Below, piece after piece: positions 14,880-64,000 of a stretch of DNA of 64,000 bases. The translations under genes were made by a program, and so were the position numbers. This stretch comes from Marsupella aquatica. Its lineage: Eukaryota > Plantae > Marchantiophyta. Within the stretch, counting starts at the first letter, position 1. Every line of letters starts with the position of its first letter. Under the pieces are notes generated by a model, which was given only the letters and a program-made list of their open reading frames with translations, ran no database searches and was not told where the DNA came from. The stretch is taken from the NCBI GenBank assembly GCA_973895155.1, contig OZ316891.1:27193561-27257560 (forward strand). Direction: 5' to 3'.

Positions 14880-15282
14880 TGTTGAGCATAGACGACGATC
14901 GCAACGGCAAGCCCATGAACCATCCAACGCACAATAGTCGACACAAGAGATACGTGGTTCACCTCCTTGAGGCTACGTCCACGGGAACACACAAGAGAGC
15001 TTTACTGAACTCTAAGCCCGTCGGCTATACCGAGTCTCCACAGTGTAAGCTCTCTCTATCTCTCAAGTGGCTCCATAACAATGAGCCTTGGTTTTACCTC
15101 TCCAAGCACACATGCCTCTTATGATATAGTGTGCAACTTAGTTGTACCTAACCACATAGTTGTACCTAACCACATAGTTGTACCTAATCACGTAGTTGTA
15201 CCTAACCACGTAGTTGTACCAACCCACGTTGTTGTACCAACCACGTCATACCTAACCTAGACGTAAGAGTAAATACCCAACA
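14880..15282 (-). repeat. 3' LTR of the copia element (403 bp, six ~18-bp internal units)
   Basis: Near-identical to 20936-21374; termini TGTTG...CAACA. Confidence 0.95.
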
Positions 15283-15473
15283 ATCTTCCCCTTGACTCTG
15301 GTCTAGGGGAGAGTAATACTGCCAATGTATATGATCCCTCAGCGGGAAGTTCTGGACAGAAACCAAACCAGTTTCCCTCTCTAACTAGAGCAAACCAGAA
15401 CTAAGCCGTAGCCTAATACATAGGAATGAGGAAGAGCATATATCAGTAATTACAATGAATGTTTAAGAAAACT

Positions 15474-18400: not shown

Positions 18401-18746
18401 TCAAAATCACTGTCTCTCCCGACCTGACTTGAAGTTCACCATCAATAACGCTCCATTGATGACCATTTGAATCCAACACACCGAGTGAAATCAGATTCTT
18501 ACGCATGCCAGGTACATACCTGACTCCGGACACTGTGCGCACAGCGCCATCAAACATTTGAATCTTCACAGACCCAATTCCCTCAATTTGACAGGAGTGA
18601 TCATTTCCCATCAGAACTGAACCGTTTGAAATAGAGTAAGAACTGAAAAACTCACGAATGTAACAAATATGAAAAGAGCAAGCACAATCAAGAATCCACA
18701 CATCATCTGCTCTCCTAGATGACGTGCACAGGGCATACCCCCGGCT
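15474..18746 (-). CDS. Copia pol polyprotein (protease, integrase, RT, RNase H)
   Basis: WILDCACSFH, LWHSRLGH..CEHC, HSDVWGP, LRSDNGGEY, PQQNGVAER, YKARLVAKG, LYVDDML, KHIDVRYHF. The frame is open from the gag stop onward. Confidence 0.95.
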   Translation of the reverse strand, partial: SRGYALCTSSRRADDVWILDCACSFHICYIREFFSSYSISNGSVLMGNDHSCQIEGIGSVKIQMFDGAVRTVSGVRYVPGMRKNLISLGVLDSNGHQWSVIDGELQVRSGETVILKGSRQKNLYVLQGNTVCGEANVTKSHEEMTQLWHSRLGHMSEKGLAILRKNGLISDLQSCKLEFCEHCILGKQHRRAFGVGTHRSKAVLEYIHSDVWGPSPTPSHSGKLYYVSFIDDYSRFVWIYFMTHKSDVLSIFKKWKAQVENQTGNTIKCLDTRVKSLRSDNGGEYTSMEFEEYCSEQGITRHLTTVYTPQQNGVAERLNRTLLERSRSMLSQSGLPQEFWAEVVNTAAYLVNLSPSSAINFKTPFEMRYKRQADYHGLVIFGSDAYALTPKQNRTKLDPTSRKCVFLGYQSGVKAYRLWDPIACKLVVSRDVSFNESRLLKEGENTQVSRTDKGKSPIPDLVEGEIGYEVHDRREGVAPIMELVPVPEEPEEFVDAGEQQVDAVELQIVPAHADQSESSARRTSGRTVRAPSRYGQWVDSSQLQEDDFTADDEGDALILEEGEPSSFHEASASKEKQKWTAAMQTEMQSLKDNKTWELVKLPKGQQVVDSKWIYKLKDNSIGGGSKVYKARLVAKGFTQEKGVDYNEVFSPVAKYSTIRLLCVLVVMFGLLLDQMDVVTTFLYGTLEEVIFMRQPLGFVKRGQEELVCRLLKSLYGLKQSPRQWNKRFDDWIRSQGFHRSVFDPCVYLKPVKNVVFGFIVLVLYVDDMLIAAKDRSEIVKLKALLSAEFKMKDLGPAKRILGMEITRDLEAGKLWLTQSSYARKVIARFNMENSKPVSTPLAPHFKLSSAFCPTDDTEKGLMSKVPYDKAVGSLMYLTTCTRPDLAMAMGKVSRYMSNPGKVHWEAVKWIIRYLKGTVDHGLLFDANAKKSRSLIDYVDSDYGQDLDRRRSTTGYVFTLGGGCISWRSTLQKCIAQSTTEAEYVAAAEAAKEAIWLDRLIIEMGLPQGNVKLHCDSQSALHLAVNQVMDSRVKHIDVRYHFIRQAVSDNLFELVKIDGKLNPADAFTKVIPLESFSRHRDVLQVLQLHHK

Positions 18747-19781
18747 TCATAAAACATACTCATCATTGAGTAAATCAGCTTCTCCATCAGCCCTAGCCAC
18801 ATTTGCCGATGAAGTTTCCGCTGCCTTTCCCTTACAGTCTCGCTTGAAGTGTCCAACTTGGTTGCACTTCCAACATGTCACCTGCCTCCTCTGAGGGGAT
18901 TTACCCTTGGACTTAGATCTGGATTTAGATCTAAACTGGGTTCTACGGTCCCCAGTTGGTCGCTGCATACTCCTCCCATGGTTAACATTGAGGGCAGCAC
19001 CAGATGATGAAGGCTGTGACGTGATGTGCATCTTCTGCTGAAGATCATCACTAAGCAGAGAACTTACCACGTCATTGTATGAAATGGTATCCCTATCACG
19101 ATGCAACAACACTCGTGATAGGGACTGGTAGGATGGAGGCAATGAACTAAGAAGCTGCAGAGCCTTCGTCTCATCATTCAAAGTCTCCCCAAGGTTTTCC
19201 AAGTCAACGACCATGTCGTTGAAAGCATCCACATGGTCTTGCAACTTCGTACCAGATTTCTTCATCCTGAAACTCATCAGTTTGTAGGAAGTGTAGAGCC
19301 GGTTCGATAACTCCTTGCGGTGATACTTGCTCTGCAATTCCGCAAATAAGGACATGCAATCCTTATGTGCACCCAACTGCTTGATGATGGGAGGCATGAG
19401 ATAGAGTGTAACACACCACACTCCCTGCTCCTGCATGCGGTCCCATTGTTTCTCATCAACATCGTCTTCACGAGGGCTCAGCAGTTGGCCCATCCCTGAC
19501 GCATAAAGCACTCCCTTCACCTGCTTCTCCCATAGCAAGTAGTCAGAGCGCCCATCATACTTTGTCACTTCATACTTGGGTCCCCCAAGCTTGAAAGTCC
19601 CCATCTTCTTCTTTACCGTGAGCTCCGGTAGTAGTACTGCTTCCTCCACCACACGCCGCACCGGTGATGGTATCGGTGTTACGTGCTCTTCCTCCTGCTC
19701 CTCTCTCTGCCCCTGAAACCTCCACGGTGATCCTCGTGCTTCAAGTTCCACGTCTTCGAAAAACTCCTCCGAATCACTCAT
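18747..19781 (-). CDS. Copia gag
   Basis: YDGRSDYLLW, LLSSLPPSY and a CCHC zinc knuckle (CWKCNQVGHFKRDC). Ends at TGA in frame with pol. Confidence 0.93.
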   Translation of the reverse strand: MSDSEEFFEDVELEARGSPWRFQGQREEQEEEHVTPIPSPVRRVVEEAVLLPELTVKKKMGTFKLGGPKYEVTKYDGRSDYLLWEKQVKGVLYASGMGQLLSPREDDVDEKQWDRMQEQGVWCVTLYLMPPIIKQLGAHKDCMSLFAELQSKYHRKELSNRLYTSYKLMSFRMKKSGTKLQDHVDAFNDMVVDLENLGETLNDETKALQLLSSLPPSYQSLSRVLLHRDRDTISYNDVVSSLLSDDLQQKMHITSQPSSSGAALNVNHGRSMQRPTGDRRTQFRSKSRSKSKGKSPQRRQVTCWKCNQVGHFKRDCKGKAAETSSANVARADGEADLLNDEYVL

Positions 19782-20935
19782 ATGAGAAAGTCACAAAAAA
19801 TGTTGTTTTTCACAACTTCTCAAAAAACTCGAAACTCAACACCGCCGCGTAGCCCACAAAGCTAGGAGTCCAATACTGAAAACCAAAATCAAAATCGAAA
19901 TTTGACGGAAAAGTTATTCAAATTTCGGTCGAGGTGGGTAAAACCTTGGGAAACTCCCCCGTTTTGACCACCTCAGGGAATAACCGAAATACCAAGTACA
20001 ACCCGTTGTCGGAATTGCGATGTGATTGGTGTGCTGCATTGCCAACTTCAATGGCTACGACCTCGCCAAAAAATAACCAAAAAAGTTACCGTTCGGCGGA
20101 TGAAATCTTTGTCGGACGGTCAAAAAATAGCTCTCTGGTTTTTTGGAATATTCTATGACCCTTGTACAGGCCCTATAGGAATTTTGGAAGAACAATCGAG
20201 GGGCTGACATGTGTCCTCGAACCCCCAAAACCCCCTACCACCCTTCGTCGTCGAAATCTGGTCGCGCGCGCAGAAAATACACACGGCAGAATGTACCCCT
20301 CGACACCAAACGCAAGATATCTCACTCGGGTTTTGACTAAATCAAGATCCGATTTCAGATTTGGAAACTAGACTCCGAGGTGATGAAGATCGATATAAGA
20401 AGCACCCAAAACGAGGAAAGAACAAGGGAGAAAAAAATTGGTAAAGATGACAGATTTCTCTCAATTGCCATAGCCAATTTCGAATCAGTTTTTCAAAGAG
20501 AAAAAAATGGTACCTTGTCAACAACGAATGTTGATCAATTGCACTTGGTGCCGTCACCAAGTCCAACAAGGTAATTGATTTTGCTTAGCCTTCCTCTTTG
20601 CATCAAAGAGCCAATCCCGGACTCAAAAACAATCGTCTTGCCTCAATCTCTCCGTTGAGTCAAAACACTTGACGCTTCTCCCTCTGAGTCGATTGTCAAC
20701 TTTCTTCACAAAATCCAGAACGACGAAAACTTAGATCTCTCTGCACCACGAGCTCCGTTCAACGATTTCTTCACACCGTTAGAAAGCTCTTACCCTGATC
20801 TATCCGTTGAGCCCATAAACTCCAAGTTCCATGCGATGGAACTCTGGAAAATCCACCAACACTCAACGCTGGAAAAACCGTCATGAAATCCCGTCACGAA
20901 CACACGTCACCTCCCAAGCATGCTCTGATACCAAT

Positions 20936-21374
20936 TGTTGAGCATAGACGACGATCGCAACGGCAAGTCCATGAACCATCCAACGCACAATAGTCGACAC
21001 AAGAGATACGTGGTTCACCTCCTTGAGGCTACGTCCACGGGAACACACAAGAGAGCTTTACTGAACTCTAAGCCCGTCGGCTATACCGAGTCTCCACAGT
21101 GTAAGCTCTACCTATCTCTCAAGTGGCTCCGTAACAATGAGCCTTGGTTTTACCTCTCCAAGCACACATGCCTCTTATGATATAGTGTGCAACTTAGTTG
21201 TACCTAACCACATAGTTGTACCTAACCACATAGTTGTACCTAATCACGTAGTTGTACCTAACCACGTAGTTGTACCTAATCACGTAGTTGTACCTAACCA
21301 CGTAGTTGTACCAACCCACGTTGTTGTACCAACCACGTCATACCTAACCTAGACGTAAGAGTAAATACCCAACA
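20936..21374 (-). repeat. 5' LTR of the copia element (439 bp, eight ~18-bp internal units)
   Basis: Adjacent to the PBS; 36 bp longer than the 3' LTR. Confidence 0.95.
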
Positions 21375-22210: not shown

Positions 22211-23606
22211 TTGCAGCATTTCATGTTACTTTCATTAAACCTTGGCTTGATTGTCACATCTTACATGCTTAGTTAACTCGATCTTCCTTGTTGCAGCTCA
22301 TACAACTTATTTTGACACATTTTGCTCCTTGCTAAGAGTTCCTCATTGCTATTGAAGAGATTTTGTCTTTGTGTCTCAGACTTAGTGCATGGTTACAATA
22401 TGTTAAAGATAATACATTCATCTGTTTCCACATCAATATGCACTTGAAGTCCCTACAGGAAGTGGGACAATGATTGCATGTATTAGAGCAACCCTGGATA
22501 GACCCCTTGATTGGCTTGTACTCCAGGTGAATGTTTTTAACTTTTTCAACAAAGTCTTTTTGGGTAGCCATATTTTGTGGATTGATATCAGAGTTGTGGT
22601 TACAGACCCATTGTGATCCCCCAAAATCCAAGAAGATAGTTTAAAGAAGGTGGTCACTAGTGTATTTTGGTATCAGCACCATGAGCTCCCAATCAACTGG
22701 ACTGCAATATTATAAATAGCATTGCCAATAGATCTAAGGGTAAAATGTGATTACCCTAACTAAATACAGGTTGGGGGCAAAGAAAAGAGGGCCATAACTA
22801 GTCAGAAAGTGACATGTCCCCTGAAAGATATGTGAGGGGAGGATATATTCTGAAACTCTCACCAAATCATCAAACTGTTGTGATCAATTGAGACTTGTCC
22901 TTACTCCCTCTCCAACAATGAGCGGGGCAGTGAGTCAAAGAGTAGCATCAGGCGTTCATGCATTCAAGGGGAAGCGCTAGTGGAGGTTGTGGCTTCTGAC
23001 TTAAGGTGCGCCCAAGGTGTGCGTGGTCCCAACGTGTTGTTTCTGCAGTACGTCAATTATTTTTTTGTCATTGTCTGGGGCCCATAGACACTAGTTTGAG
23101 AATCACAGGTGATCTCAAGGAACTAGTGGATCCACATGAAGTGGACGGCGAGAGCCACTAGAGGGTTTAGTGAGAGAGCCGAAGTGAGAGCCGAAGTGAG
23201 AGCCGAAGTTTGGTGCTCGGAGGTGAGTCGGAGGTGGGAGGGAGGAGATGCGTTGTTCGCGAGAGTAGGTAAGCCGAGGGCGCGGAAGGAGGGGCAAGGG
23301 AGCAAAGACTTGAAGATTAAATCTCTAGAAATCTCTACATGAAATCTGTTTTGAAAGACTCCTTCCTTTCCTGATCGAGATCTTCGGAATCCGCATAAAC
23401 GTTGCAAGAAGCTCAATTGCTGCGGAGGCAACGAAGCCGGGAGCGATGTGGATGGTTATTCCGCTGCAGAGCCGGAGATTTCTTCTTCTGACTTTTTGGA
23501 TTAGTGGCTCGAAAGGCACGAGTGGAATTGGAGGTCAGTGATGACGCCCTGAATTTTGGCCCTCCTATGCTTCTGAGAACAATTTCGGCAGTAGGATTCT
23601 TCTGAA

Positions 23607-26985
<3,379 letters not shown>

Positions 26986-33819: not shown

Positions 33820-36637
33820 CACTGTTTTTTGTTTGGCACTGTTTGGAGAACACGCAATGTTTGAGAGAGAGACAAGGGGACAGTTTTGAGATTTCGTGAC
33901 TCAATTTGGGTTGTAACTTTCTCCGGGAGTTTTGGATTTGGGAGTTCTTGATGGCTTTGGAAAGCTCTTGGCGAGGCGGTGAAGATCGATACGACTTGCA
34001 CCCCAAACGGTCACCGTATGAGCGAATTACATCAGATTTAAGTTTCGCTGTTTTTTCACTTTTTCTGCACGTTTGGCAATTTCGACGATTTTGCGACTCA
34101 ATTTGGGTCGTAACTTTCTCCGGGAGTTTCGGATTTGGGAGTTTTTGACGGCTCTGGAAAGATCTTGGCGAGGCGGTGAAGATCGATACGACTTGCGACC
34201 CAAACGGTTACCGTATGAGCAAGTTACATCACTTTTCACGTGCAGAAAAAGTGAAAAAACGGCGAAACCTAAATCCGATGTAACTCGGTCATAGGGTGAC
34301 CGTTGGGGGCGCAAGTCGTATCGATCTTCACCGCCTCGCCAAGATCTTTCCAACGTCAAAAACTCCCAAATCCGAAACTCTCGGAGAAAGTTACAACCCA
34401 AATTGAGTCGCGACATCGTCGAAATCGCCAAACGTGCAGAAAAAGTGAAAAAATAGCGAAACCTAAATCCGATGTAACTCGGTCATAGGGTGACCGTTGG
34501 GGGCGCAAGTCGTATCGATCTTCACCGCCTCGCCAATATCTTTCCAAAGCCGTCAAGAACTCTCAGATCCGAAACTCCTAGAGAAAGTTACGACCCAAAT
34601 TGAGTCACAAAATCGCCCAAATCGCCAAACACGCAGAAAAAGTGAAAAAAACGACGAAACTTAAATCCGATGTAACTTGCTCATACGGTAACCGTTTGGG
34701 GCGCAAGTCGTATCGATCTTCACCGCCTCGCCAAGATCTTTCCAACGTCAAAAACTCCCAAATCCGAAACTCTCGGAGAAAGTTACAACCCAAATTGAGT
34801 CGCGACATCGTCGAAATCGCCAAACGTGCAGAAAAAGTGAAAAAATAGCGAAACCTAAATCCGATGTAACTCGGTCATAGGGTGACCGTTGGGGGCGCAA
34901 GTCGTATCGATCTTCACCGCCTCGCCAATATCTTTCCAAAGCCGTCAAGAACTCTCAGATCCGAAACTCCTAGAGAAAGTTACGACCCAAATTGAGTCAC
35001 AAAATTGCCCAAATCGCCAAACACGCAGAAAAAGTGAAAAAAACGACGAAACTTAAATCCGATGTAACTTGCTCATACGGTAACCGTTTGGGGCGCAAGT
35101 CGTATCGATCTTCACCGCCTCGCCAAGATCTTTCCAACGTCAAAAACTCCCAAATCCGAAACTCTCGGAGAAAGTTACAACCCAAATTGAGTCGCGACAT
35201 CGTCGAAATCGCCAAACGTGCAGAAAAAGTGAAAAAATAGCGAAACCTAAATCCGATGTAACTCGGTCATAGGGTGACCGTTGGGGGCGCAAGTCGTATC
35301 GATCTTCACCGCCTCGCCAATATCTTTCCAAAGCCGTCAAGAACTCTCAGATCCGAAACTCCTAGAGAAAGTTACGACCCAAATTGAGTCACAAAATCGC
35401 CCAAATCGCCAAACACGCAGAAAAAGTGAAAAAAACGACGAAACTTAAATCCGATGTAACTTGCTCATACGGTAACCGTTTGGGGCGCAAGTCGTATCGA
35501 TCTTCACCGCCTCGCCAAGATCTTTCCAACGTCAAAAACTCCCAAATCCGAAACTCTCGGAGAAAGTTACAACCCAAATTGAGTCGCGACATCGTCGAAA
35601 TCGCCAAACGTGCAGAAAAAGTGAAAAAATAGCGAAACCTAAATCCGATGTAACTCGGTCATAGGGTGACCGTTGGGGGCGCAAGTCGTATCGATCTTCA
35701 CCGCCTCGCCAATATCTTTCCAAAGCCGTCAAGAACTCTCAGATCCGAAACTCCTAGAGAAAGTTACGACCCAAATTGAGTCACAAAATCGCCCAAATCG
35801 CCAAACACGCAGAAAAAGTGAAAAAAACGACGAAACTTAAATCCGATGTAACTTGCTCATACGGTAACCGTTTGGGGCGCAAGTCGTATCGATCTTCACC
35901 GCCTCGCCAAGATCTTTCCAACGTCAAAAACTCCCAAATCCGAAACTCTCGGAGAAAGTTACAACCCAAATTGAGTCGCGACATCGTCGAAATCGCCAAA
36001 CGTGCAGAAAAAGTGAAAAAATAGCGAAACCTAAATCCGATGTAACTCGGTCATAGGGTGACCGTTGGGGGCGCAAGTCGTATCGATCTTCACCGCCTCG
36101 CCAATATCTTTCCAAAGCCGTCAAGAACTCTCAGATCCGAAACTCCTAGAGAAAGTTACGACCCAAATTGAGTCACAAAATCGCCCAAATCGCCAAACAC
36201 GCAGAAAAAGTGAAAAAAACGACGAAACTTAAATCCGATGTAACTTGCTCATACGGTAACCGTTTGGGGCGCAAGTCGTATCGATCTTCACCGCCTCGCC
36301 AAGATCTTTCCAACGTCAAAAACTCCCAAATCCGAAACTCTCGGAGAAAGTTACAACCCAAATTGAGTCGCGACATCGTCGAAATCGCCAAACGTGCAGA
36401 AAAAGTGAAAAAATAGCAAAACTTAAATCTGATGTAATTCGCTCATACGGTGACCGTTTGGGGCGCAAGTCGTATCGATCTTCACCGCCTCGCCAAGAGC
36501 TTTCCAAAGCCGTCAAGAACTCCCAAATCCGAAACTCCCAGAGAAAGTTACGACCCAAATTGAGTCGCAAAATCTCAAAATTGTCCCCTTGTCTCTCTCT
36601 CAAACAGTGTCTGTTCTCCAAACAGTGCCAAACAAAA
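33820..36637. mobile_element. Non-autonomous fold-back element, probably CACTA/CACTG superfamily, filled with a 196-bp satellite
   Basis: Left end CACTGTTTTTTGTTTGGCACTG. A ~70-bp unique cap is inverted at both ends. About 2 repeat units run in one orientation (to ~34230) and about 12 in the other. Confidence 0.7.
34235..36570 (+). repeat. Tandem satellite, ~196-bp monomer in a 392-bp higher-order dimer
   Basis: Identical ORF translations recur at 34600, 34992, 35384, 35776 and 36168 (period 392), with alternating monomer variants. Confidence 0.97.
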
Positions 36638-38621
36638 GGCGACACATGATCCTAAGACAAAAAAACCCAATTAAGGGGGGACAACCAAAGCGCCAAAAAT
36701 CCAGAAGGACCAGAGAGAAGCCGCCCAACAGAAGAAGCCCAACACAAGAATCACCAGGGACAGAAAAATATAAGGACTGTGTTGCATGTGCAAAAGTACT
36801 TTAAAAAGTTGCCCTTGACTGGCCCACAACAGACAGGAAAGAAAGTATGACCAAATCAAAGCACAATACTCCAATGCAATCCATGCTCACACTCAGTACT
36901 GTTTCCTCCTTTGTAGTTTCAGCCCCTTTGTCATTATCAGTGTATTTTTTTTGTTTATGAATTTGAAAGGTGGGGACTATAAAGGGCCGGAAACTTTAGG
37001 GCCGTTGCCCTTGAAAAAACTGAATTGCTGCCATATGGACTGACACACAAGGAGGGTGAGGCAGGAAAGGCTCAAAGAGTAAGCATGTGCCACCTGATCT
37101 GTTAAAGGGTCGATAATTTGGGGACCCTCACATGCAAGATGGCCCTAAAACCCTACCTATTCTCAAACTTACAAGCCTGGTAGAGCTCGGGTGTGAACTT
37201 CATAGGAGGGTCAAGCAAGGGCATCCTACATGACTTACAGATGAACTAAATCTAAAACAATTTGAATAGGTGACCAATCTTGAGACCCTGATGAGGAACA
37301 CACAAAGAATCTTGGCCAAAGGATACAGAATTCTCTAAAATCTAGCCTGCCACACTTGCCCAAAATGAAAATTTGAGAATTTTAGATTAAAAAACAAATT
37401 GAAAAATATGTTGAAAATTTTTATGTTTACCAAAAAACATAATTTGATATTTTCTGTGCCAAGGGAAGACTGGGATTAAATTGCAATATTTTTTATGCAA
37501 TGATGTCTTTCAAGCAATGAAACGCTAAATGCAACACCTCACTTGTTGAATGGTCTCAGTCTTTAACATAACAATTTGTTTTAATACATACTAATATCTT
37601 TTGCATAGCGACATCTTTTGAAGGCTTTGGTAGTAGGCTTACTGTAATTACTTTCTATGGTTTCAATGGAACTTAACACTGGCAATGGCATAAGAAACTC
37701 TTGCTCTGGTCTTTCCAAAGAACCTGCAGAGTATTTTGATAAAGCTGGCAACTTGTGAAGGTAATTTGATAGTGTAGCTAATAAAATGCAATCGAAAGCT
37801 ACTCCTTGGGCTTATTGTCTAGAGTGAAGTCTCTAGACACTGACCCTAACCTAGGTCATACCTGAATATCTCACTTATAAAGTGCAAACAAAATTTAGAT
37901 TGGGGTCTAGACTTCTAGAGAGTAACTTTAGATAAAGACAAACTAATGTTATGAATACATCGCAAACATAAGCTACTTTTGAAGGTGAGGGTCTCATGTA
38001 AAACCTCTATACCATAACTCCAAATATGGACAAAATTGAACTAAAAAATAAGGACAAAGTAAGGGTGAACAAAAAAATGAGATGGGGCAAATATAAACAA
38101 GATATAGCATATAATTCTTTCTTTTGCTAGTTCTTTTTTTTGTCTTCATTGCTATTTACAATCAAGGAAGGGATAATCAGGCTAGTAAGGGCAATACAGA
38201 AAGTGAATACCAAAAACATGGAGGGGCAAAAATGAAGGCAAACAACATAGATTCTTTTGCAGGACTTTTTTTTGGTCTTATCTCTATTAATATTCAAAGC
38301 ATGGGCATTAAGGTTCCTAAGGATGCAAGTGAAGACCACAATGCCAATATTTGAACACAAGGCGCCTCTCGGAGTACAAAAAATGAAAACATATTGTAAA
38401 ATTTGAATACAATTTCCAGTGGCATTATTTGAATAAAGCTCCCCATGTCAATTCGAATACAATAAGGCCATGGCGTTCACGTGAAGACAGTAGTGTTTCC
38501 CGAGATTCGTCACTCCCCTTTTCTCTTCCTCCCCCTCTGTTTCTTCCGCCATTCAGTGGGATGCATGAGCATGTATTCTTGTTAAACTACTCCCTGTCGG
38601 TAGTCTGTACACGACAATACG

Positions 38622-38780
38622 TATAGGGTAACGACGATCCGGTCGACCGTTACTGGGGTGTAACGGGACGACCGGGTTCTGACACAGGCGTGACCGGCGG
38701 GAGCCGAGAGCGCCTGGGGAGGAAACCGGGAGCCCCGGTACACCCCAGTAATGGACGGCCTGGATCGTCGTTAGCGTACG
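38622..38780. mobile_element. ~150-bp hairpin mini-element (putative non-autonomous partner of the tyrosine recombinase element)
   Basis: Imperfect ~34-bp inverted repeat TAACGACGATCC..GG..TTACTGGGGTGTA (38629-38662 vs 38739-38773). TACGTA occurs at both sides. Confidence 0.65.
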
Positions 38781-39414
38781 TAATCGCGATCTAGGTTTCA
38801 GGTTCACCGGCTCCTGCAAGTTGAAACACTCTGGGTCATTGGATCAAGTAGACGCTGCATCGGGACCGTCAATTCAATTGCAGTGAAGGGGGGAGGGGGT
38901 ATTTTGCGGATAGGGCGGGCTGCACTGTTTTGTCCCGATGTTGAACAAGATTGAACGAGACGGAGTTGGGAGGCTGCAGCAAAGCGCCGCGCGATCCGGC
39001 AGGGAGAGGCGAAGCTCGGAGACTGCAGGCTGCAGCGAAGCGCTGCGCGATCTGGCGGGGCAAGGTGATGCAGTGGCGATGGTGGTGGTGAAAGCTTGGA
39101 GATGGTGGCAGGATGGAGTGCAGCTCGTTTGAGCTGGTTTGAAACCAATGCGACTGTGTTGCGACCAGGGGGAGCTTTCCATTTTCAATTTTGATTTCTT
39201 TTGAATATCTTCAGGCGCCATGCATTGTTTGCAGATCATGGATAGCGGGGTGGAAGCAAGTGCAGCATTGAAGTGGAGTGTGGTTATATCATTTGATTGC
39301 TTGTTGTTGAGTTGTAGTACTTATGCATTGCTTTCAATGTTGAGTAGTCAAATGGCTGTAGCGGCTGAGCAACTCATCTCGTTTGGAGTGATCTGTGAAG
39401 TAGCTCGTATCAAG

Positions 39415-41635
39415 ATGGAGGGAGAGTTAAGCGATGGAGTTGTTCCTGGCGATTATTCAGACGCTGAGAGGGAGATGTTTTATATGGATGATTTGAGTGT
39501 TGACGGGGAGACTTGCGATCTTTCAGAATTTGATTCGGCCACTGCATTTGATGAGGCATCTAAAGAAGCTGTTTCTTTAGATGTATTTTCTACTTTGGTC
39601 GAACCTAATCGAGAGCTTGTCAATGAGGTTGAGAGTGGGCTGCAGGTTGCTGAGCAGAACCATTCGGATCAAGCGGATGCAAGTTCATCCGGCTTGAGGC
39701 AGGATCTATTGGAAGTAAGCCTGCCAGGCTTGAGACTCCTGCCTGATCCTGCTTTAGAGGAAGCAGGGCGAGGATTGGAGAAGTTGCCATCCGCATGGAA
39801 CGACCAGTGGGCTGTGAGGAGGGCTGACGGGTTGCGTAAGGGGATGGGGTGGGACTTGAGTGTTGCATTTGGAGACTTGTTGCTTGTGCAGGTGGACGAG
39901 TTGCTCAGCAACTATTTTGCTCGAGCAGTGAAGAAAGACGGTAATGTTTACCCATCATCTTCACTCATGAACCAAATGAATAGCTTCAATCGAGTGTTGA
40001 GGCGAGGGAGTGATCTGAGATCGCTGAAGGGTTCTTCTTACATTCTGCCGAGAGATTTCAACATCAACTCACATCCAGCCTTCTCAAGAACTCGAATGGT
40101 GTTGAAAGCGGCCATCAAGAAGTCTGCGAAGGAGGGGGCTAACAAGAAACGAAAGAAGGTGAGAGCTGCCAACTTGCATTGTCTTTAAAGATGTTGTGTG
40201 CTTGTAGACTTGTCTGCTGCTTCTGACTTTTGGATGTTCTGGTCCAGGTTGAGATATTGACAGAGGAGCACGAGAAAGCTATTATGGCTGACATTGACCA
40301 CCAAGTGACAAGCAGCCATGGATGTCAAAAGCGCTTGGCATTTTACTGTCTGGTCAGGCTTGGCATTCGTGGAGGTGGCGAGCTCTATGATCTACATAGA
40401 GGCGACTTATCTGTATGCATCGACAAGGCAGGAAGGAACTATGTGCAGTAGGTGTTTTTTGTCTAGTTTGATATTTCCGTTTCTAAGATGTAGCTTTTTT
40501 GTATTTGTTTATTGTCTGGCAATGATACTAATAAACATTTGAATTTGTTCAGGTTTGAGGAGCGCCAGAGTAAGAATAACTCTTACATGCTGGATCGGTA
40601 CAACGAAGAGCAGTTTCGAAAGATGTATCATAGTTATGAAGTCGATTTTGTGTTTACTGTGAATCAGTACAAGCGCCATTTATCTCCAGAAGCAGAGTCG
40701 TCGAAGCCTGACCTCTTTATGCAGACAATTACCAATCCTGCCAGGAATGTCTGGTATAATAAAGTCCACAAGGTAGGGAGAGATACTGCCGCTCACTGGC
40801 TTAAGAATATGTTGGCGCTGGTGGGGCTGCCACCTGATCTCTTTTCAAACCGAACTGGAAGGACCACACTAATCTCTCGACTAGCTGCAAAAGGAGTCCC
40901 TGATGTGGTTGGTATGCTTATTAGTGGGCATCATTCAACCGGAGGTTATTCACGTTACGACAAAACACAAGAACTTAAGATGGAAGCTGCAGCCCTGGTC
41001 TCTGCTAGTCCAGGCCTTGATTATGAGAAGGCTCTTGGACATGTTTCAAAATCCTTTGTCCGAGAGAAGCTTGTTGGATCATCCGAGGGTCTGAAACCCC
41101 TTGTTGACAGGGTGAACGAAAAGGCCAATGTGCAGCCTTCACTTTTGACACTTGTACAGGTATGTCAACGAACTTTGATTTGTTTGTGAGTGAGGTTTCT
41201 TGGTATTGTTGCTAATGGGAATGTTGTTGGTTGGCAGGGATCTACAGGTTCAAGTGGAGTACTAGGAGAAACATCAGCAAGAGCTTCAGAGCAGGTTTGT
41301 TTGTAGTGATTTTGCATGACTGTCGGTTGTTGCCTGTCATGCAAGACTGAGATTAATGTTTGTTTTGTGTGTGGCAGGATGGAAGCCACATTGTTGGGGA
41401 TATGTTAGTACAAAGGGCAGATGCTGCCAGATGGGATTCGTCCTATGACGGAATTGATTGGGTGGGCGAGTTATTGAAGCAGAACCCTTTGCTTCACGAG
41501 AAAATTTCAGGCCCAACACCAGCCAGAGTTTCTGTGGGCAGCAATATGTCTGGAAATTCCTTCCACAATTGTTCAGTATCAATTAAAATTGTCAAGGCAG
41601 GGGAGGAGGATGAGAAGGAGAACGCAGGCCACTGA
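39415..41635 (+). CDS. DUF3504/Crypton-type tyrosine recombinase, ~621 aa, 5 exons
   Basis: Exons 39415-40158, 40248-40447, 40553-41159, 41238-41294 and 41378-41635 join in frame with GT-AG sites. Motifs: VKKDGNVYPSSSL, GIRGGGELYDL, EERQSKN, VWY..VGRDT, NRTGR, SGHHS..GYSRY, C-terminal FHNCSVSI. The start could lie further upstream (ORF open from 39220). Confidence 0.85.
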
Positions 41636-42179
41636 GATTGTAGTTAGTGATATTGTACTTAGTTTTTCAGATATTGGATCTGATTTAGAAACCACCGATG
41701 TAATACTCTAGTTAGTTTTCAGATCAGTATCCTGATGGACAGAAATACCATTAGCAGGAAATAACAGTAAGCTAGTAGGAACATTATACATATCAGCAAT
41801 TTACTGATATGGCTATATGAGCGTACCTATGTACATCAAGAATGGTTTTACTATTCGGTTAAACTTTGCATGACTCCCGGCCATGAATAAAGTGGAATTT
41901 TTTGAGTACTTAACTTCTTCCAATCACTGTTCGCGTTCAATACTTAAAGTCAATAAAAGTTTTACGACTCCAAACTCTCCAAACACAATGCTGAAACATC
42001 ACCAAATAGAAAAATTGGACACAAGCCTGATCATAACTTGTTTAGGACAATTCCGATTAACCTATTCTGAAGGATGGACTATGCCAATTGGATGTACACG
42101 TATGGACCTGTGTATGGATGGAAAATGTGTTCGGGACGGTACATATAAGGTGGATGAAATACTGATTTTCCATCCAGTA

Positions 42180-42278
42180 GTTATAGGGTTCCGTAGCTGC
42201 ATTACGGGATTCCGTAGCCAGGTTACAGAGTTCCGTAGCCCGGTTACAGCATTCCGTCACCCATGTTACAGAGTTCCA
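42180..42278 (+). repeat. Subterminal 21-bp degenerate tandem repeat (~5 copies)
   Basis: GTTACAG(A/C)(G/A)TTCCGTAGCC-type units about 75 bp inside the right inverted repeat. Confidence 0.8.
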
Positions 42279-43451
42279 AAATGTCAGCCGGGTCAGGAAG
42301 GGAGATTACGGAAATACAGGGACCACCCAAAATAGGTTACAAATGTAGGTAACCTGAAACCAAGACCGCGATTACGACTCAGCAGTCAGCCACTTGAGGC
42401 AGCCCCCGCCCCGCGCCCCGCCCCGCCCGGCCCCGCGCAGGGAGGCTCCGAGGACAGATTTGAACTTCCGAACAGCACGGGCTCGAGTGGTACCTCTCTC
42501 CATCTCTCTCTCTCTCTCTCTCATTCTCTCTCGTGTGGCACGAACGAATGATCTTAGAAGACCGGCCTGTGGAGCATTAATCGCTCCTTGAGGCTTGGAC
42601 TTCGGAGACTCTCCGAGATTAGTCGCGGTTGCGTTGTGACGGACGGAGTGGCTGGCTGCAGTAAGCAGTGGAGCAGTGGAGCGGCTATTTTAATGGAGGG
42701 CCTGACGATTGAGCTGGAACGCGAGCTTCGATTTCAGGCGCCGTTGCAGTTTGCATTGTCCTATGAGATGGACGGACTCACTGACGTCAGGCAGTCTCTC
42801 AGCCGATGTGAGCAAAGAGCTGCTGCGCGGGATTGAGCGAAAGGAGCACCTTGGCAGCTGCTGTTGTTGCATTTGTGCTTTCTAAGGGTGGGAACTCTCT
42901 CAAGAGGCTCTTGTTGTCAACGAAAGGTTTCCATGGGATCGAAGGAGCGCTTCTGAGCTGGCGATTACTCTGTACTGGATCGAAGTAGCCGTTTTCAGGA
43001 GGCTTCCGATGTGGTCTAGCTCAATTGCAGTGGTGCAGGAGGACTCTGTGGGTTCTTCTGATGGACTGACCTGAGGAAGCCGCGACGGAGAACCGTAATG
43101 AAGTTCTTCTGTACTTGTCTTACGAGAGGAGAAGTGTAAACCGTCCCAGAGTAGATAATCCCTAAGTAAGAAATGCAAGAGAGACAGAGCAGCTACTCTT
43201 GAGTGATTCAAAGGTTAATGGAGGTTTATGGAGGATTTTACAGGATTTTGGATTGGCGAGTTTAGACGACGATGAACTTCATGTGTCAACGGATGGATTT
43301 GTCATGAAAGGACTCACAGAGACAGTCACTTACATTTAGGCATCTCGGAGGAAGACCATTTTGTACGATAATGTGTCGGAAGGAATGATGAGATTACAAA
43401 GAGTGACGGATTCGGGATGAGGTGATCAACTCTTTCAATTCCGCATCATCA

Positions 43452-46072
43452 ATGTCCAAAATGGACGAACACGCCCTTAACAGTATGGCTGCGGGATTTT
43501 GCGGCCAGCTGAAGACTTTTGTAACATGTCTCCATTCCAACACTTCTCAGCTGAGAGCTTCAATCACGCACAAGCCTCCTGCCTGTAAGTACATCATTCA
43601 CTGACGACTCTGCAATGCCGATTAGATTTTATCCTCTGTGGACCAGTTCCTACGTTCTGTGCTCTCACGTTCAGAATCACTGTACTGTAGTTGAAATCGT
43701 TCCACATTAGCATGATAGAAGCGAACCTTCACCTTCTCAGTTGCCGGGCTAGCATTGGAATGGCGTTGAATGAACAAGAACGCTATTACTGAGTATCGAC
43801 GGCAAAGTTGCCATGTTAACTTTCAGATGCCGAATTGTCGTCATTTTTGCTCGATTTCAACGATCGGCTAGCGGAGGACGGTGCTCAAATGGACCTGTTG
43901 GAAGAGATGACTGTGGAGAACGTCAGCTTCGAGGAACTACTCGCGCACTGCATGGAGTTGTACAAACAGAACGAGAGCAGCATCTCATCGCTGGAGTCAC
44001 ACTTGGAGCAGTTTGGATATTCCAGAGGTTTGTTTTGCACTCATCCCCATTGCCCTTCTCAAGTTGAAAATACTTCTCGAACCCTTCCAATCTTGGATGG
44101 ATTATAAGTCAAGTCCACGGAAAGAATGGTTAGTTCTCCGGAAATATTACTTCGGTCTGTAGTTCCGTCAAGCAACCCTTCTCCATGAGCACCACCTTCT
44201 TGGCATGGTCGTGATATCTCCTCCAACTTCCCATAATTCCTACCCTTGCGTTTCTATGCCCAATTCTAAATTTTGTTTTATCTCTATTTTTAAACATAGG
44301 TGATAGTCAATAGCATTCTTAACCAAGAGATGTCTCAATCCTGACAGGCGGGAATGTTGGCGGAGGAGAAGAAGGCCAAGCGTTGGATACACCTTTTGTG
44401 GAGGGGCTGAAGCAGCGCGTTAGGGCCAAGGAGTCTAGTCCTAAAGAGTCGACAAAGGTCAGGGACGATGTACCAGGGACCCCGAATGCAGAACTACTTT
44501 TTTCGTCGAACTCTTCGGGACGCTCCTATGCACATTTTGAGACGATTCGGTCGTCTGATCCCAGATCACGTCTTCAGTCGAATCTAGGATCATATCAGTC
44601 GCCTCTACCGGCAGCTCTTGCGCAATCGAAATTGGACAGCAATGACCTATCGATGTATCCTTCAACTTATTTCTGAATGCTGTCCTGGTTTCCAGTTGGT
44701 GATAGCAGACTATTTAATCATCAGAGAACTGTATAGATTCCTTTCCTGTATATCACTTTCAGCTCTTAAATGTTCTTCTTAACTTTTAGTCAGGCTTTGT
44801 GAATCATTTTCATTGGAAGACTTCGGGATATCAGCTTCAAGCCTTGCGTCCTTAGCGAGTAAGTTTTGTGATTACGATCTCGATTGAAATATCATCTTCC
44901 ATTGCTCCAGAGTTCTTTAATTTTCAACCTTAGACTCAAATTTAGTCGGTCATTGTTCATCTCACATGGGACATCACTAATGGTAAGATAACTCGGTATT
45001 TTTAGGATGAATTCGATCCTATGTTAGGACACAGTTGAAGCCCCCGTTCGAAGTATTGCTCATGTTTAAAAAATTGACTTTGCTTCCTCAGGATGCAAGA
45101 TTACTTATAGCTTCTTTCATTGGCAGAAAATGATCTGATTACTCCCGAAAAAGTGGACACTCCTGTTCATCAAAAGCGAGGAGTTACTTCTGCAGAAGTT
45201 CTATCAGAGCACTGCAGTGATGACATGGATGAGAGTTGTGGTTCCTCTCCACCAAATTCACCAACAAACAAATGTAGTGAACAAGCTGCGGGTGAGCACA
45301 AGAATCTCTTACAGCCGGCTTCATCTCTTCATTTTTCCGAGAATCTGATGGCAGGTCTGGATCTAGGTTTGCATGCTTTTGGACTGCTATTCAACATGGT
45401 CTTGACTGCTTGGTGATCACAGGGATCAAAGCTCAAAGCAGCTTGCAATTGCTAGATATGATTACTATTGAAGAGTACAATCAATTGCTACCGTGGCTGA
45501 GGCAGCGAGTCTCTTTAGAGGTAAGGCTCACTCAATGCAGAGGTACAGGCTTACAAATTTTCATATTTCTTCTTCAATATAGGTATGGTTTGTTCTACCA
45601 TGTTAGGAGCTCTCCTGAAGTATATGTTGTGATATACTAACAGTTGCACTCTGCTATTATGCCCTAGGAACTGAATGACATCGTCCTCAGAATTAATGAT
45701 GCTTTCCATATTCAAAGTGAAACACTGTCAAGTGCCGGCGGTGATAGGAAGCAACTTGAGCTGGAGGAGTCCTTTCTTCATACCTTGGGTAACAACCTTG
45801 GTCTCAACGATTCCTTGTCCTAGTTTGCCTTGGAGGCTTTACTTGTTGTGGTCAATTAGGCTGTGTAAGGTCCCCGGGACATACTTCTGTATTCTATTCG
45901 TAATGTATTTACTCAAACTTAGTACAGATCATTAATCCAACTTGTGCTGTCTGCAGGTTCCAAAATGAAACCTGCCCTTTTCATCCTTGTTCAGATTGAC
46001 AAGCTGGTTGTGGTTCGTCACAATTCATGCTCTTATTATCGTCCCTCTGAATTGGCCAAATTTCGTTGCTGA
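43452..46072 (+). CDS. SKA3: Spindle and kinetochore-associated protein 3-like, multi-exon
   Basis: FCGQLKTFVTCLHSN, MDLLEEMTVENVSFEELLAHCMELYKQN..HLEQFGY, SLEDFGISASSLASLA, EEYNQLLPWLR and the terminal KMKPALFILVQIDKL follow the plant SKA3 motif order. ATG at 43452 or 43461; TGA at 46070-46072. Confidence 0.75.
44655..44793 (+). other. U12-type (minor spliceosome) GT-AG intron
   Basis: 5' site GTATCCTT; branch point TTCTTAAC at 44776-44783, about 10 nt before the AG. Splicing keeps the frame (DLSM-LCESFSLEDFG). Confidence 0.8.
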
Positions 46073-48085: not shown

Positions 48086-49315
48086 CTATTTCAGAGGCAG
48101 AGAGTTCTCATATGCTTCGACGGAGAGTCTCTCTAGTCTGGTGAGCATTTGTTGGTACATACTCTCAAATTGAATGACCCTTGATCCGCCCTTAGCGTCT
48201 GCTGACTCATTTACGGGTAAACTACCAAGATCATCTTCATAAGCACTTCTGCTACTCTTCCCACCGTTGTTATCCAACAATGTGGCAGATTTCCCGGAAC
48301 TGCTTCTTTCTACTCCGCTTCGAAGCTGAGCTGGGGACCCGCCAGCACTGGTTTCTAAATCCAATTTAGAATTGAACCATGATGGAATCGAAGCAACGGG
48401 AACAAATGAATCATAGAACCCCCGAAGAACACCAGCATTGACAATGTTCACGGGAAGCGGTTCAAATTTGATACCTTTAGGGTTTTTGAGGGATTGAAAA
48501 GCCCTGTACTCATGGGTCCTTACAGATTTGTTAGTGGAGTCAGACTCTGTGAACAACACAAAAAAGCAAGGAGCGATTGGTGTTATATTGTCCACGACAG
48601 GCTCGATTCGCATCTCTTGACGAGGGCTGGAGATACTATTACTGCTCCTCCTGCTGGGAGAAGCGCTCATGGTGGGAGAGCCAGGAATCTCCAACGTTAG
48701 CACCGATGGCTTGGCTGCTGCTGCTGCTGCTGCTGCTCCTGCTGCTCCTAAACCCCCCACTCTCCCTGTCTGTGGGATACTGTCTACAGGTGTCAATGAG
48801 GGGCTCCTTCGAGTGCCAGTAAGGCTTGTAGATGAGGGTTCACCTCCGAGTACACTGCCTACTTGTCCAATATTCAATTTAGAGGGATTAGCTGCATCTT
48901 CTTCTGCCACAGGCGGTGCGATGATTCCGGATCGAAGAGATGTGGTGACGGCTACTTCTCTCATAGACGGCCACAGGCTGGAATTCCTCCTACCAAGGTA
49001 CCACCCGATGGGCGGATCTTCTCCTCGGGATTGCCTTTCTCTAACAATATTCGACAGCTTAGAATGGTTGAGCCTGCCGGTGGCGTCGTAGAAGCTGAGG
49101 ACACGACCAGAGCAGTAGTAGCCAGTAACCCTAGCAGTGATCTGCTCGTGAGTGATTGCCGGCCCAGCCGAATCGTCCTGCATGTTGGATGTTGTCTGGT
49201 GCTGCAAACGCCCGAATAGGAGCCCATCGCAGTCCCCTTCCACTGAGCCAAAATCATGCATGATTTGCGCCAATGTGGGTCCTGCAATTGCGAAGCTTCC
49301 TGCCGATGTCTCCAT
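48086..49315 (-). CDS. BRCA1-A/BRISC complex subunit Abraxas (FAM175)-like MPN-minus protein, intronless CDS
   Basis: FAIAGPTLAQIM..DCDGLLFG, SFYDATGRLN, IGWYLGRRN..PSMREVAVT, CFFVLFT, THEYRAF and a C-terminal coiled-coil segment ESMYQQMLTRLERL. Confidence 0.8.
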   Translation of the reverse strand: METSAGSFAIAGPTLAQIMHDFGSVEGDCDGLLFGRLQHQTTSNMQDDSAGPAITHEQITARVTGYYCSGRVLSFYDATGRLNHSKLSNIVRERQSRGEDPPIGWYLGRRNSSLWPSMREVAVTTSLRSGIIAPPVAEEDAANPSKLNIGQVGSVLGGEPSSTSLTGTRRSPSLTPVDSIPQTGRVGGLGAAGAAAAAAAAKPSVLTLEIPGSPTMSASPSRRSSNSISSPRQEMRIEPVVDNITPIAPCFFVLFTESDSTNKSVRTHEYRAFQSLKNPKGIKFEPLPVNIVNAGVLRGFYDSFVPVASIPSWFNSKLDLETSAGGSPAQLRSGVERSSSGKSATLLDNNGGKSSRSAYEDDLGSLPVNESADAKGGSRVIQFESMYQQMLTRLERLSVEAYENSLPLK

Positions 49316-50849
49316 ACTCGCATCTAGTTGCACCAAAATTGAAGAACCCTGCTCGAAAGCTCTCTTCTATCTATCTATCTATCCCGCGCCCTGAAGTTCG
49401 ACAAGACAATAATGATCACAGCTTCATTCCCAGGGCTATTTCCCCTAAAATCCTCGGCAACAGGTTGCACATCTGGAACAGTGGGAAAGCTTGGTTCGGC
49501 ATAGAATGTTCAACGGAGAGACTTCTCAACCATCCAAACTGTCCAAACCGGCTCTCGTTAACAGTTCCGTTACTTCTCATGAGCATCCGCCCTCATTTAG
49601 TGACAGGAATTAACATTAAGCAGTGATTGAGCCCTAAAAATGGGGCTGTGGTTCCCCCGGAACTGTGTGGACGAGGCAGCATCCAGACTCCAAAATCTAA
49701 CACGCACACTTGCGTCGCTACAATAAACAATCTCCCCTTCAGGATTGTAGGCACTCAATTCCTCTCCGGAACAAGTCATCAGTGGCTTAACTCCGAGGAT
49801 TGGAGGATTTCCGAAACGCATTCCAGGTCTGCACTGACTCTAGCAGAGAAGAGTCAAATTAGGGTTTATACGCTGTAGAAGAAGACCATCCGACCTGGTG
49901 GCATGAGAGTAGTCTTCTGCCACGAAAGCAACGGAGCAGGCCGTGGAGATCCTGGAAAACGACAAATCTCGATGAGAATAGAGACAGAGAGAAGCAGAAC
50001 AGATTTTGAAATTATGTGAGGGACGAGAATCGACGCAAACATGGAGCTCAGACAGAAATTGGCGGACAATCTGCCGTCCGGTAGCATGGATCATCGTGTG
50101 TTCCACCGGTCAGGAAATATATTCTCGGCTATAAACGGTGGCTACATACCGATAATAAATTCCGCCATCCGTCACCAGAGCTCTGGCGCGATAGATTGAA
50201 CTCAATGAAAAAGAGAAAAAGTTGGAATAACCCCTATCGAAATATAAAAGCAAGGACCAAGAAGAGAAGAAGAAACACATTGACGAAGCGGTCTGGGAAG
50301 CTCCACTTCCAACGAGACTCTCGAATGATTGAACTGTTCCATCCACGGAAACACGAAGTATCCAAACAACAACAAGACCAAAGTATCTAGGGAGCAGTGT
50401 CACAAAAACAAAAACAAAAACAAACAAAAAAAACAGGTAGACATCCAGCAAGAACAGAATGTCTACACATAACGTGGGTACCTCGTTTGGTTGATACAAC
50501 AATCTTCTCGAATGATCTGTATTAAGAATGGTCCCCGAACTGTCTGCTCTCCACCAATCTCAAGAATTGCCATGGGCGGGTCTCCCAAGCTATGATAATC
50601 GACACTACGTACTTGTTAAACAGACAAATTCTATCCTACTGATGGTTTCTGCGCTTCTTGTTGTCTTTCTCCCGTCTCATCCACTTCAAGGACACTTTCA
50701 AACTGCGGACGAAGGGAGCAGACAGCGAAAGTCTTCGGTTCTATGTGCAAGTTTAGGAACCTTGTGTTCTGTTTTAGGCTTGAAACCGAAAGCAGACCCA
50801 ACAATTATGAACCTTGTATTCTCTCAATGAGAATTGAGGGTTCAAATAT

Positions 50850-62646: not shown

Positions 62647-64000
62647 ATTACTAGGTGTTAAGCATTTACTTTTAGTCTAGGGTTATAACTATAATCATAG
62701 TTAGGGCTTATCTTAGTTGTAGACTAAGTTAGGTTAACAAAACTACACACTATATGCCCAAGCAGTGTTTGCTTGGATAACAGAGAACTTTAGCTTATTC
62801 TTACGGACCTAGTTGAGAGATATGGAGATTTTGTATTGGGGAGACTTGATATGACAAACGGGCCTATAGTGCAATAAACATCTCGTGTGTTCCCGTGGGC
62901 ATAGCCTCAAGCTGAGGTGAACCGTGTATCTCTCCATGTCAACTACTTGTGCGTTGGATGGTTCATGGGCTTGCCGTTGCGATTGTTGTCTATGTTCAAC
63001 ACCAGGGAGACGACATCGCTAAAAATTATCCTCCTACCTAAACTTTCCTACCTAACACATGTGGCACATACATGTGCAACAACCCTTTCCTACCCACCTA
63101 GGGTGACCAACGGTGTCTTCATTAGCGTCTACCAACCTAACTCCTATCAACGTACTAATCTTCTAAACGGGTTGCCATGTTTGCCGGTCCCAGTCTTTCC
63201 TCTGGTGGCCACCAACCCATTGTGCACAAGGGACCCCTACAATTGTCGAAAGCAAAATTTTCTCAAAATATTGTTTTGAGAAAACTTTTGGGTGGCCTCT
63301 TCCTTCCTAATTGCAATCCCTAAACGGCTCCCAAAATGGACTTTCAAGGGCCAACATATGGCCATCGAGTTTTTGACGTTTGGCCATCGTAACAAGAATC
63401 TTTGTCTGTACGGCCACTGCCTCATCCTGGAAATTTAGTGGAGGCCACTGGACATGGCCTCTTGCCTGGGGTGGCCAACAGTTCCTCACCTAGCTGTCGT
63501 ACACATGGTCGTGTTGCGTCGAATCTCAATTTTTCAGCAAAATGCTCTAGCTTGTATCTTACTCATCTCGACTCCGTGTGGAGCGTGCCATACCTTGTTG
63601 GATTCATCTCGGCAAGTAGTTTCCAACAATCTTGTAAACTTATAACTCTAAGATTGTTAAAAAATTGACCTTTGTATAGCCAACGTCCGTACGGATGGCT
63701 TGCCCACCAATGGTCATCTTCTCCCTCTATCATAGCCAATTCACAAATTTTCCTTGAGGTGGCCTCCTCTGATGGCCTCCTCCAAGTCCTCAAGAGATAA
63801 CCACTCCCCATTTTTCCAATGACCTCCTTTTCCACGATGGCCACCTCCTTGCATCCTTTGGCAATGACCTCTTTTACTTCTACAATGACCTCCATCTATT
63901 TCTATGATGGCCCCCATCCTTTTGTATTGCACAATTTGGGAATGACCAACCTCATGCTTTACGATGGCCTCCCAATAAAAGTCTACATTGACTAAAAGCT

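Follow-up and report, generated by a model that had tools for sequence, protein, structure and literature searches.

The Cryptons are tyrosine-recombinase transposons. In the model of Goodwin et al., which the available part of PMC3212892 restates, a short sequence at the end of the element recombines with a target that is nearly identical to it. The available part of PMC9977147 supports this recombination model for CryptonF-1_cRei from Chlamydomonas, an element that has CACCG as its end and CAYCG as its target, leaves cleanly on excision and prefers gene-proximal DNA. Here we describe an apparently intact tyrosine-recombinase element of 3.6 kilobases (kb) at positions 38779–42376 of a 64-kb stretch from Marsupella aquatica (assembly GCA_973895155.1, contig OZ316891.1, positions 27,193,561–27,257,560, forward strand), and we refer to this whole stretch of 64,000 nucleotides as the window. 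We consider it likely that the element is a Crypton-type transposon of an undescribed land-plant lineage.

The literature that we searched, in the parts available and including PMC11630846, PMC5753468, PMC13565253, PMC12130899, PMC8969392 and bioRxiv 10.64898/2026.09.17.752431, describes no Crypton from land plants (the search did not extend to Repbase, Dfam, subscription journals or the supplements of genome papers), and a review of land-plant transposons (PMC9033089) leaves Cryptons unmentioned and omits DIRS in its available part. The novelty is specific to land plants, as Cryptons are already known from a green alga.

Results

A predicted five-exon gene for a tyrosine recombinase

The initial annotation of this locus, made from the sequence alone, had proposed a five-exon gene with an uninterrupted protein of 621 amino acids (aa), and we confirmed both the four GT..AG introns and the stop-free joined frame. 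On the plus strand, the exons at 39220–40158, 40248–40447, 40553–41159, 41238–41294 and 41378–41635 are separated by predicted introns at 40159–40247 (89 base pairs (bp), phase 0), 40448–40552 (105 bp, phase 2), 41160–41237 (78 bp) and 41295–41377 (83 bp), each of which holds stop codons in 3/3 frames. The joined exons encode 686 aa from the ATG at 39220 or 621 aa from the ATG at 39415, end at the TGA at 41633–41635 and contain all six protein motifs quoted earlier. The evidence for the start codon is divided: the alignment to P0001, a Calypogeia (liverwort) protein, begins at residue 44 of the 686-aa form, and the open reading frame (ORF) P0008 begins at the Met of the 621-aa form.

The splice model, in which the introns are predicted from DNA, is supported independently of RNA by homologs and by other copies. 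The spliced protein aligns with P0001 without gaps through exon junctions 1 and 2. Exon 1 encodes an acidic N-terminus followed by a QRICH1-like/core-binding helical domain with a KKDGxxYP motif, and its segment 39736–40158 is 61% identical to P0001; identity is 69% for exon 2, which carries Arg354 (40368–40370, GIRGGGE) and Glu358, and 61% for exon 3, which carries Lys387, Arg480, Arg483, His506 and the predicted nucleophile Tyr515. The least supported exon is exon 4, with 19 poorly conserved codons and about 25% identity to P0001 across its stretch. Exon 5 runs to the stop and encodes a C-terminal tail common to the Calypogeia homologs (36% identity to P0001 over 61 aa, E 2e-7). Alignments of the homolog ORFs P0004 and P0006 begin or end at junction 1, with that of P0006 ending at the intron 1 donor, and the alignment limits of P0004, P0006 and P0003 lie near predicted splice junctions.

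We also compared public contigs of four runs (X1–X4) from two organisms (A and B) over positions 37800–43200. From totals of 1462 pieces, 740 variants, 46 joints and 675 loose ends, which include an unrelated repeat at about 37800–38340, the comparison drew on the 32, 40, 15 and 24, respectively, that were listed. Indels of other copies at 40208 and 40238 fall within intron 1. Contigs from X3 and X4 match both exons flanking intron 2 but diverge between 40455 and 40548/40550, and a diverged X4 copy departs from the reference after 41161 with GAGT, which gives a GT-GAGT donor for intron 3. Among the 12 of 121 indels listed, 10 lie outside coding sequence; the other two are an in-frame 3-bp deletion and a frameshift.

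The initial annotation had named a tyrosine recombinase, and a tyrosine-recombinase fold is supported by profile searches, by the ESM Atlas and by the model of a homolog. The DUF3504 region named in the same annotation fared unevenly, as profile, language-model and structure searches linked the protein to it and Pfam did not. In the ESM Atlas, residues 195–570 of P0001 and exon 3 of the window gene led to DUF3504/phage-integrase clusters (0.97–0.98; template-modelling score (TM) 0.79). A 10-row profile retrieved 921 relatives at E values up to 0.001 and 39 at 1e-30; among 30 long hits, 12 distal ones exceed the DUF3504 cut-off, in most cases alongside matches to QRICH1 and Phage_integrase, and the DUF3504 matches of two closer hits stay below the cut-off. 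For the relatives P0013 and P0027, the DUF3504 (PF12012) scores are 24 and 18.5 bits, respectively, against a cut-off of 29.7.

The AlphaFold model of the P0001 core, built from a 99-row alignment, reached a predicted local distance difference test value (pLDDT) of 93.7. Its top-ranked PDB matches were Tre and Cre (E 1e-6, TM 0.53–0.62), followed by Tn1549 Int, QRICH1, XerA, IntI4 and XerH. The family profile matches QRICH1 (chain 9hjt_H, E 4e-14), an integrase (5e-5) and XerA (3e-4), and it aligns R483, H506 and Y515 with the HxxR Arg, the GH motif and the Tyr of XerA, IntI4 and an integrase. Against PDB sequences, phmmer with P0001 returned only a chance match to a ribosomal protein (E 0.56), and the 10-row profile found nothing.

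Counted from the ATG at 39220, the window protein retains R354, K387 (40572–74), R483 (40860–62), H506 (40929–31) and Y515 (40956–58). In the 47 other aligned rows, R354 is conserved in 34, E358 in 43 and K387 in 38, these three having been positioned by conservation and motif order and not by residue-level structural alignment.

Inverted ends, TACG repeats and a tandem hairpin

The gene is enclosed by terminal inverted repeats (TIRs) of 26 bp at 38779–38804 (plus strand) and 42351–42376 (minus strand). These match at 24/26 positions, above the best of 30 shuffles of the 7-kb region (22/26), so that the two-mismatch repeats first reported for this locus hold. The accompanying statement that there is no target-site duplication overlooked a 4-bp TACG direct repeat at both ends (38777–38780 and 42373–42376), which overlaps the inverted repeats at this one locus. 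The left TACG lies within TACGTA (38777–38782), is common to the right end of a small hairpin element and is the likely crossover core. A third TACG (38618–38621) marks the far end of this hairpin, and the order at the locus is host, TACG, small hairpin element, TACG, 3.6-kb element, TACG, host. The central CG belongs to both the small and the large element, which means that at least one of the termini is incomplete and that some letters must come from the target.

When both ends of the 3.6-kb element are joined, 23/30 positions are symmetric around the CG, compared with 8/30, 5/30 and 10/30 at the three chromosomal junctions and 10/30 at the modelled empty site. Symmetric arms exist solely inside the element, and a symmetric site forms on end joining, not at the chromosomal junctions. 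This bears on an alternative raised in the initial annotation, in which the enzyme is a site-specific invertase and the inverted repeats are the sites between which it turns over its own 3.6-kb cassette. Such inversion is formally possible, given inverted repeats and a palindromic central CG, and CryptonF causes inversions in Chlamydomonas according to the available part of PMC9977147; the asymmetry of the outer half-sites at the element's chromosomal junctions (5/30 and 10/30, versus 23/30 for the joined ends), the direct orientation of the TACG cores and the multi-copy, apparently dispersed nature of the family, which is unexpected for an invertible cassette, nevertheless disfavour it. The 15 of 46 joints listed include no strand-changing joint, a point that counts for little as contigs drop rare forms. 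We regard an invertible cassette as highly improbable.

The hairpin element (38618–38782) is about 160 bp long, stands in tandem at the left end of the 3.6-kb element with TACGTA on both sides, and is multi-copy, with a variant at 38733 in X2–X4 and a joint from 38700 to 38772 in X3 and X4. Its predicted fold has an energy of −64.4 kcal/mol (z −10.8 against 200 shuffles); its arms, which have an offset of 2 bp, reach a score of only 5 when CG symmetry is tested without gaps. Its CpG observed/expected ratio is 1.32 versus 0.70 in the window. It holds five RTTAC/GTAAY motifs versus 0.53 expected, and the RTTAC motif is common to the hairpin and the 3.6-kb element. In the latter, a subterminal array (42180–42376, plus strand) combines a 21-bp tandem repeat (42180–42277) with eight RTTAC/GTAAY motifs in the last 200 bp, versus 0.64 expected and the highest number among 200-bp windows scanned across the 64 kb; the motif was picked after inspection, and the P values are therefore generous. 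We infer that these motifs are candidate accessory binding sites. The hairpin is likely to be a non-autonomous passenger that the same recombinase, or a sister of it, would have brought to the same target; this would account for the arrangement in tandem.

Neither the 3.6-kb element nor the hairpin has a second copy within the 64-kb window, and the three other TACGTA sites in the window showed no similar ends by inspection. A 173-bp X1 contig identical to the window ends exactly at 42376, which hints at copies that share this end and differ beyond it; reads also seem to be cut at 42399–42537. In an X1 contig (depth 50.6), the terminal 28 bp (42347–42374) occur a second time after 17 letters of other sequence, which suggests a related copy whose end motif is duplicated.

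The junction letters also permit a reading in which each element has TA on both sides. The inverted repeats could then belong to a cut-and-paste element with TA duplications that is mobilized in trans by a DDE transposase in the Tc1/mariner style, as in MarCry, with the recombinase gene as a passenger and the hairpin as an unrelated Stowaway-like miniature inverted-repeat transposable element (MITE). DDE elements typically have terminal inverted repeats, and MarCry-1_FO combines 16-bp TIRs with TA duplications in the available part of PMC3212892. Set against this, Pfam found neither a reverse transcriptase (RT) nor a DDE domain in the five longest plus-strand ORFs of the element, and the repeat extends to TACG at 3/3 junctions. 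An unrelated MITE is unlikely to hit the exact terminal TA, the RTTAC motif is shared by both elements, and the recombinase frame appears to be under purifying selection among copies, as detailed below. We judge a DDE-driven origin unlikely.

Copies and land-plant relatives

In X2, contigs that are identical to the element have a depth of 8–12, similar to the flanks (8 and 13.8), and other contigs over the same element differ by 4–8% (92–96% identity) at a depth of 25–31. The exact copy thus appears to occur once in X2, alongside a diverged subfamily of a few copies. It also seems to be present in both samples of organism A, and organism B holds relatives of 87–95% identity along the whole element, ends included. 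The 40 listed variants (of 740) include 15 in coding sequence, 10 of them silent, where the expected silent share is 0.22–0.28 (P 0.0003–0.002), a pattern that points to purifying selection on the recombinase frame among the diverged copies.

Searches further afield returned nothing: a metagenome scan with exon 3 gave 78 pattern matches with none confirmed, one with the terminal-repeat pattern gave none, and a scan of prokaryote genomes gave 59 matches with none confirmed. The only viral locus (L001; 25 aa, E 6e-4) lies inside an unrelated 1862-aa protein and was dismissed as a chance match.

To describe the distribution of the family, 28 proteins were looked up. By sequence, the closest relative is the Calypogeia protein P0001, which is 61–69% identical over the core. 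Calypogeia fissa has four related proteins on four different contigs, and Adiantum capillus-veneris has five on five chromosome-size contigs; in the latter, one cluster occupies three chromosome-size contigs, with two members 98.6% identical. The other named hosts are A. nelumboides, Marchantia polymorpha (Mp5g04240), M. paleacea, Ceratodon purpureus and Selaginella moellendorffii. The named relatives cover liverworts, a moss, a clubmoss and ferns. Near-identical Adiantum members on different chromosome-size contigs (P0015/P0155/P0156 and P0016/P0028) suggest a recent spread in a fern. P0016 is annotated as fused to PPR repeats, possibly a gene-model artefact.

A midpoint-rooted tree was built from 48 rows covering at least 220 core residues, with shorter hits excluded. 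The window protein forms a group (100/100) with two Calypogeia proteins. Together with all 17 named plant rows, it falls within 33 rows opposite 15 canonical DUF3504-type rows (100/99), a split that establishes neither the monophyly of a plant clade nor the direction of transfer. The rows were picked by a plant-derived profile and include no named Repbase elements; 15 of the plant-side rows are unnamed, and of the canonical rows 12 were scanned by Pfam, two were labelled through their cluster and one was unscanned. The branch of the window protein is long (1.09) relative to the other plant members.

Some relatives appear to have left transposon life. The Marchantia protein Mp5g04240 (P0029/P0159/P0160) is 94.5% identical between two species and is without the GH motif, and the Selaginella proteins (P0046/P0161–P0163) have lost most catalytic residues, from which both look domesticated. 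A search of papers for Mp5g04240 gave no match. The window gene itself could likewise be a domesticated or immobilized recombinase-derived host gene, like ZMYM/QRICH1, with its ends as relics. It has four introns, its neighbours are host genes, its Marchantia and Selaginella relatives lack catalytic residues, and its exact copy seems single in X2 and is found in both organism A samples. On the other side, the window protein retains the catalytic R, K, R, H and Y, the inverted repeats are 92% matched, diverged paralogous copies span introns and non-coding ends, and the branch is long compared with those of other plant members. The initial annotation had named a single-copy domesticated gene as the case that would overturn a transposon; the diverged copies, which span the whole element including the non-coding ends in two organisms, speak against that case, and we consider it very unlikely.

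Surroundings of the element

In the region to the right of the element (42377–44700), a probable host gene begins at about 42693 behind GC boxes and a CT microsatellite. The element would sit in the promoter region of this gene; this copy lies about 300 bp upstream of it. An exon near 43829–44026 is reminiscent of SKA3, and Pfam gave no convincing match.

Further away, a full-length Copia retrotransposon on the minus strand (14880–21374) has long terminal repeats (LTRs) of 91% identity and a stop at 18746/18747 that separates gag from pol, and a related LTR fragment lies at 62728–63003. A tandem satellite at 34238–36574 comprises about 12 copies of a 194-bp unit, grouped into six copies of a 392-bp higher-order unit at 98% matches, and the segment 37800–38340 is a high-depth dispersed repeat with many loose ends in 4/4 runs. 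Host genes of the SGT1/ecdysoneless family and for an Abraxas-type MPN protein were found at 23595–25501 and 48086–49366, respectively. The Copia, SGT1 and Abraxas-like neighbours show a eukaryotic nuclear setting without fixing the lineage, and the nearest relatives of the recombinase point to a liverwort as the host.

Discussion

The initial annotation had interpreted this locus as a Crypton-type transposon. The fold, the diverged copies and the TACG direct repeats, which have the short length (4–6 bp) expected at both termini of a Crypton in the broad sense, favour this interpretation, and a Pfam assignment to CryptonA was not obtained. 'Crypton-type, related to CryptonA' is more exact than 'CryptonA': we chose the label because there is no Pfam DUF3504 match and the protein stands apart from canonical DUF3504 proteins in the tree, and we place the element outside CryptonA proper because it has terminal inverted repeats and lacks that Pfam match. 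The element is potentially autonomous, and we think its present-day activity possible though doubtful.

Several observations weigh against a Crypton-type transposon. Pfam found no DUF3504 or integrase match in the exon ORFs, nor in full-length P0001 and P0002, and the fold was modelled on the homolog P0001 (61–69% identical over the core), not on the window protein. The canonical active site of tyrosine recombinases combines an R-H-R-Y tetrad with K and H/W, and the His of HxxR is Arg480 in the window protein; in the 47 other rows this column holds K in 17, H in 15 and R in 7, with Lys in most plant-side rows, and by this alignment the substitution is common to the plant-side group. One frameshift occurs among the X4 copies at 40811. 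X2 depth suggests that the exact copy lacks identical twins, and the inverted repeats have two mismatches, which gives no sign of a recent burst. By chance, the host-side TA at the left junction would be expected with a probability of about 0.05, and both transposition and the TACG target rest on one locus. Described Cryptons are generally without terminal inverted repeats in the available part of PMC3212892, and the 26-bp repeats depart from the Crypton as first described (Goodwin 2003; Kojima and Jurka 2011).

Beyond the sequence anatomy, we infer how a Crypton-type element of this kind might move. The predicted spliced gene would produce a tyrosine recombinase that binds the inverted ends, and recombination between the two TACG cores would release the 3.6-kb element as a circle. 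The circle junction would form a site of about 50 bp that is nearly palindromic around a central CG, like loxP or attP, with both arms borne by the element. On integration at another TACG, the exchange would leave TACG on both sides, and the flanking TACG would be the crossover core, though resembling a duplication. An insertion junction would recreate TACG, so that a second element using the same core could land in tandem, as the hairpin may have done.

A broader proposal, which we put forward tentatively and to which we give less than even credence, is that land plants hold an ancient tyrosine-recombinase transposon lineage of their own, sister to animal CryptonA and still mobile in leafy liverworts and ferns. 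This lineage would have self-contained inverted arms and a TACG core, would drive hairpin MITEs and would have given rise by domestication, at least once, to genes without catalytic activity (Mp5g04240, Selaginella), and the present copy would be a working plant-native integrase. If true, this would be a plant parallel of ZMYM/QRICH1 domestication. Mp5g04240 is a conserved, uncharacterised Marchantia gene that likely encodes a transposon-derived DNA-binding protein. The mechanism of Crypton movement lacks experimental demonstration according to the available part of a 2026 review (PMC13565253), and an intact copy with defined ends makes both this mechanism and the terminal structure of DUF3504-type elements directly testable. 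A eukaryotic recombinase with a short target could also be tried for plant genome engineering.

Among known systems, the element resembles CryptonA and the Glomhoppers of Glomeromycota in having a single recombinase gene whose N-terminal part is QRICH1-like and whose catalytic part is DUF3504-like, and the distal matches of the family profile are proteins that combine DUF3504, QRICH1 and Phage_integrase. According to the available part of PMC13465315, 75% of Glomhoppers contain introns, like those predicted in the gene here, and non-autonomous partners are known for CryptonA from the available part of PMC3212892. Unlike these elements, the window family has no Pfam DUF3504 match and about 22–27% identity to canonical members, stands on a separate side of the 100/99 branch, has K/R in place of the HxxR His and lives in land plants. 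The ends differ as well: in the available supplement of PMC3212892, 8/8 CryptonA entries list no terminal repeat and inverted repeats are given solely for MarCry-1_FO (16 bp) and CryptonF-2_PI (602 bp), and the available part of PMC13465315 describes Glomhoppers without detectable repeats and DUF3504 elements from animals and fungi, with no plant member mentioned, whereas the window element has clear 26-bp inverted repeats and a 4-bp direct repeat.

With CryptonF-1_cRei of Chlamydomonas and the CryptonF and CryptonS elements of fungi and oomycetes, the window element shares a size of about 3–4.5 kb, gene-proximal insertion and a short terminal direct repeat regarded as target and crossover core (CAYCG, TATGG or TAACTA in those elements). 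CryptonF carries a C-terminal GCR1_C domain, whereas Pfam found none in the exon ORFs, P0001 or P0002. The likeness to Cre/loxP and the Tn1549/Tn916-type integrases lies in the fold, for which these are the best structural matches (TM about 0.6 to Cre/Tre and 0.35–0.46 to Tn1549 Int), in inverted arms around a short core and in a predicted circular intermediate. Unlike these systems, to which identity is 12–16%, the window gene is eukaryotic and predicted to be spliced, with acidic N-terminal and C-terminal extensions, and both arms lie inside the element, so that the target in the chromosome would be hardly longer than the core. Lastly, the domesticated DUF3504 genes (QRICH1, ZMYM2/3/4, KCTD1 and WOC) have a homologous domain and, in the available part of PMC3212892, have lost the catalytic Tyr and the second Arg, whereas the window protein keeps both within a repeat-bounded, multi-copy element.

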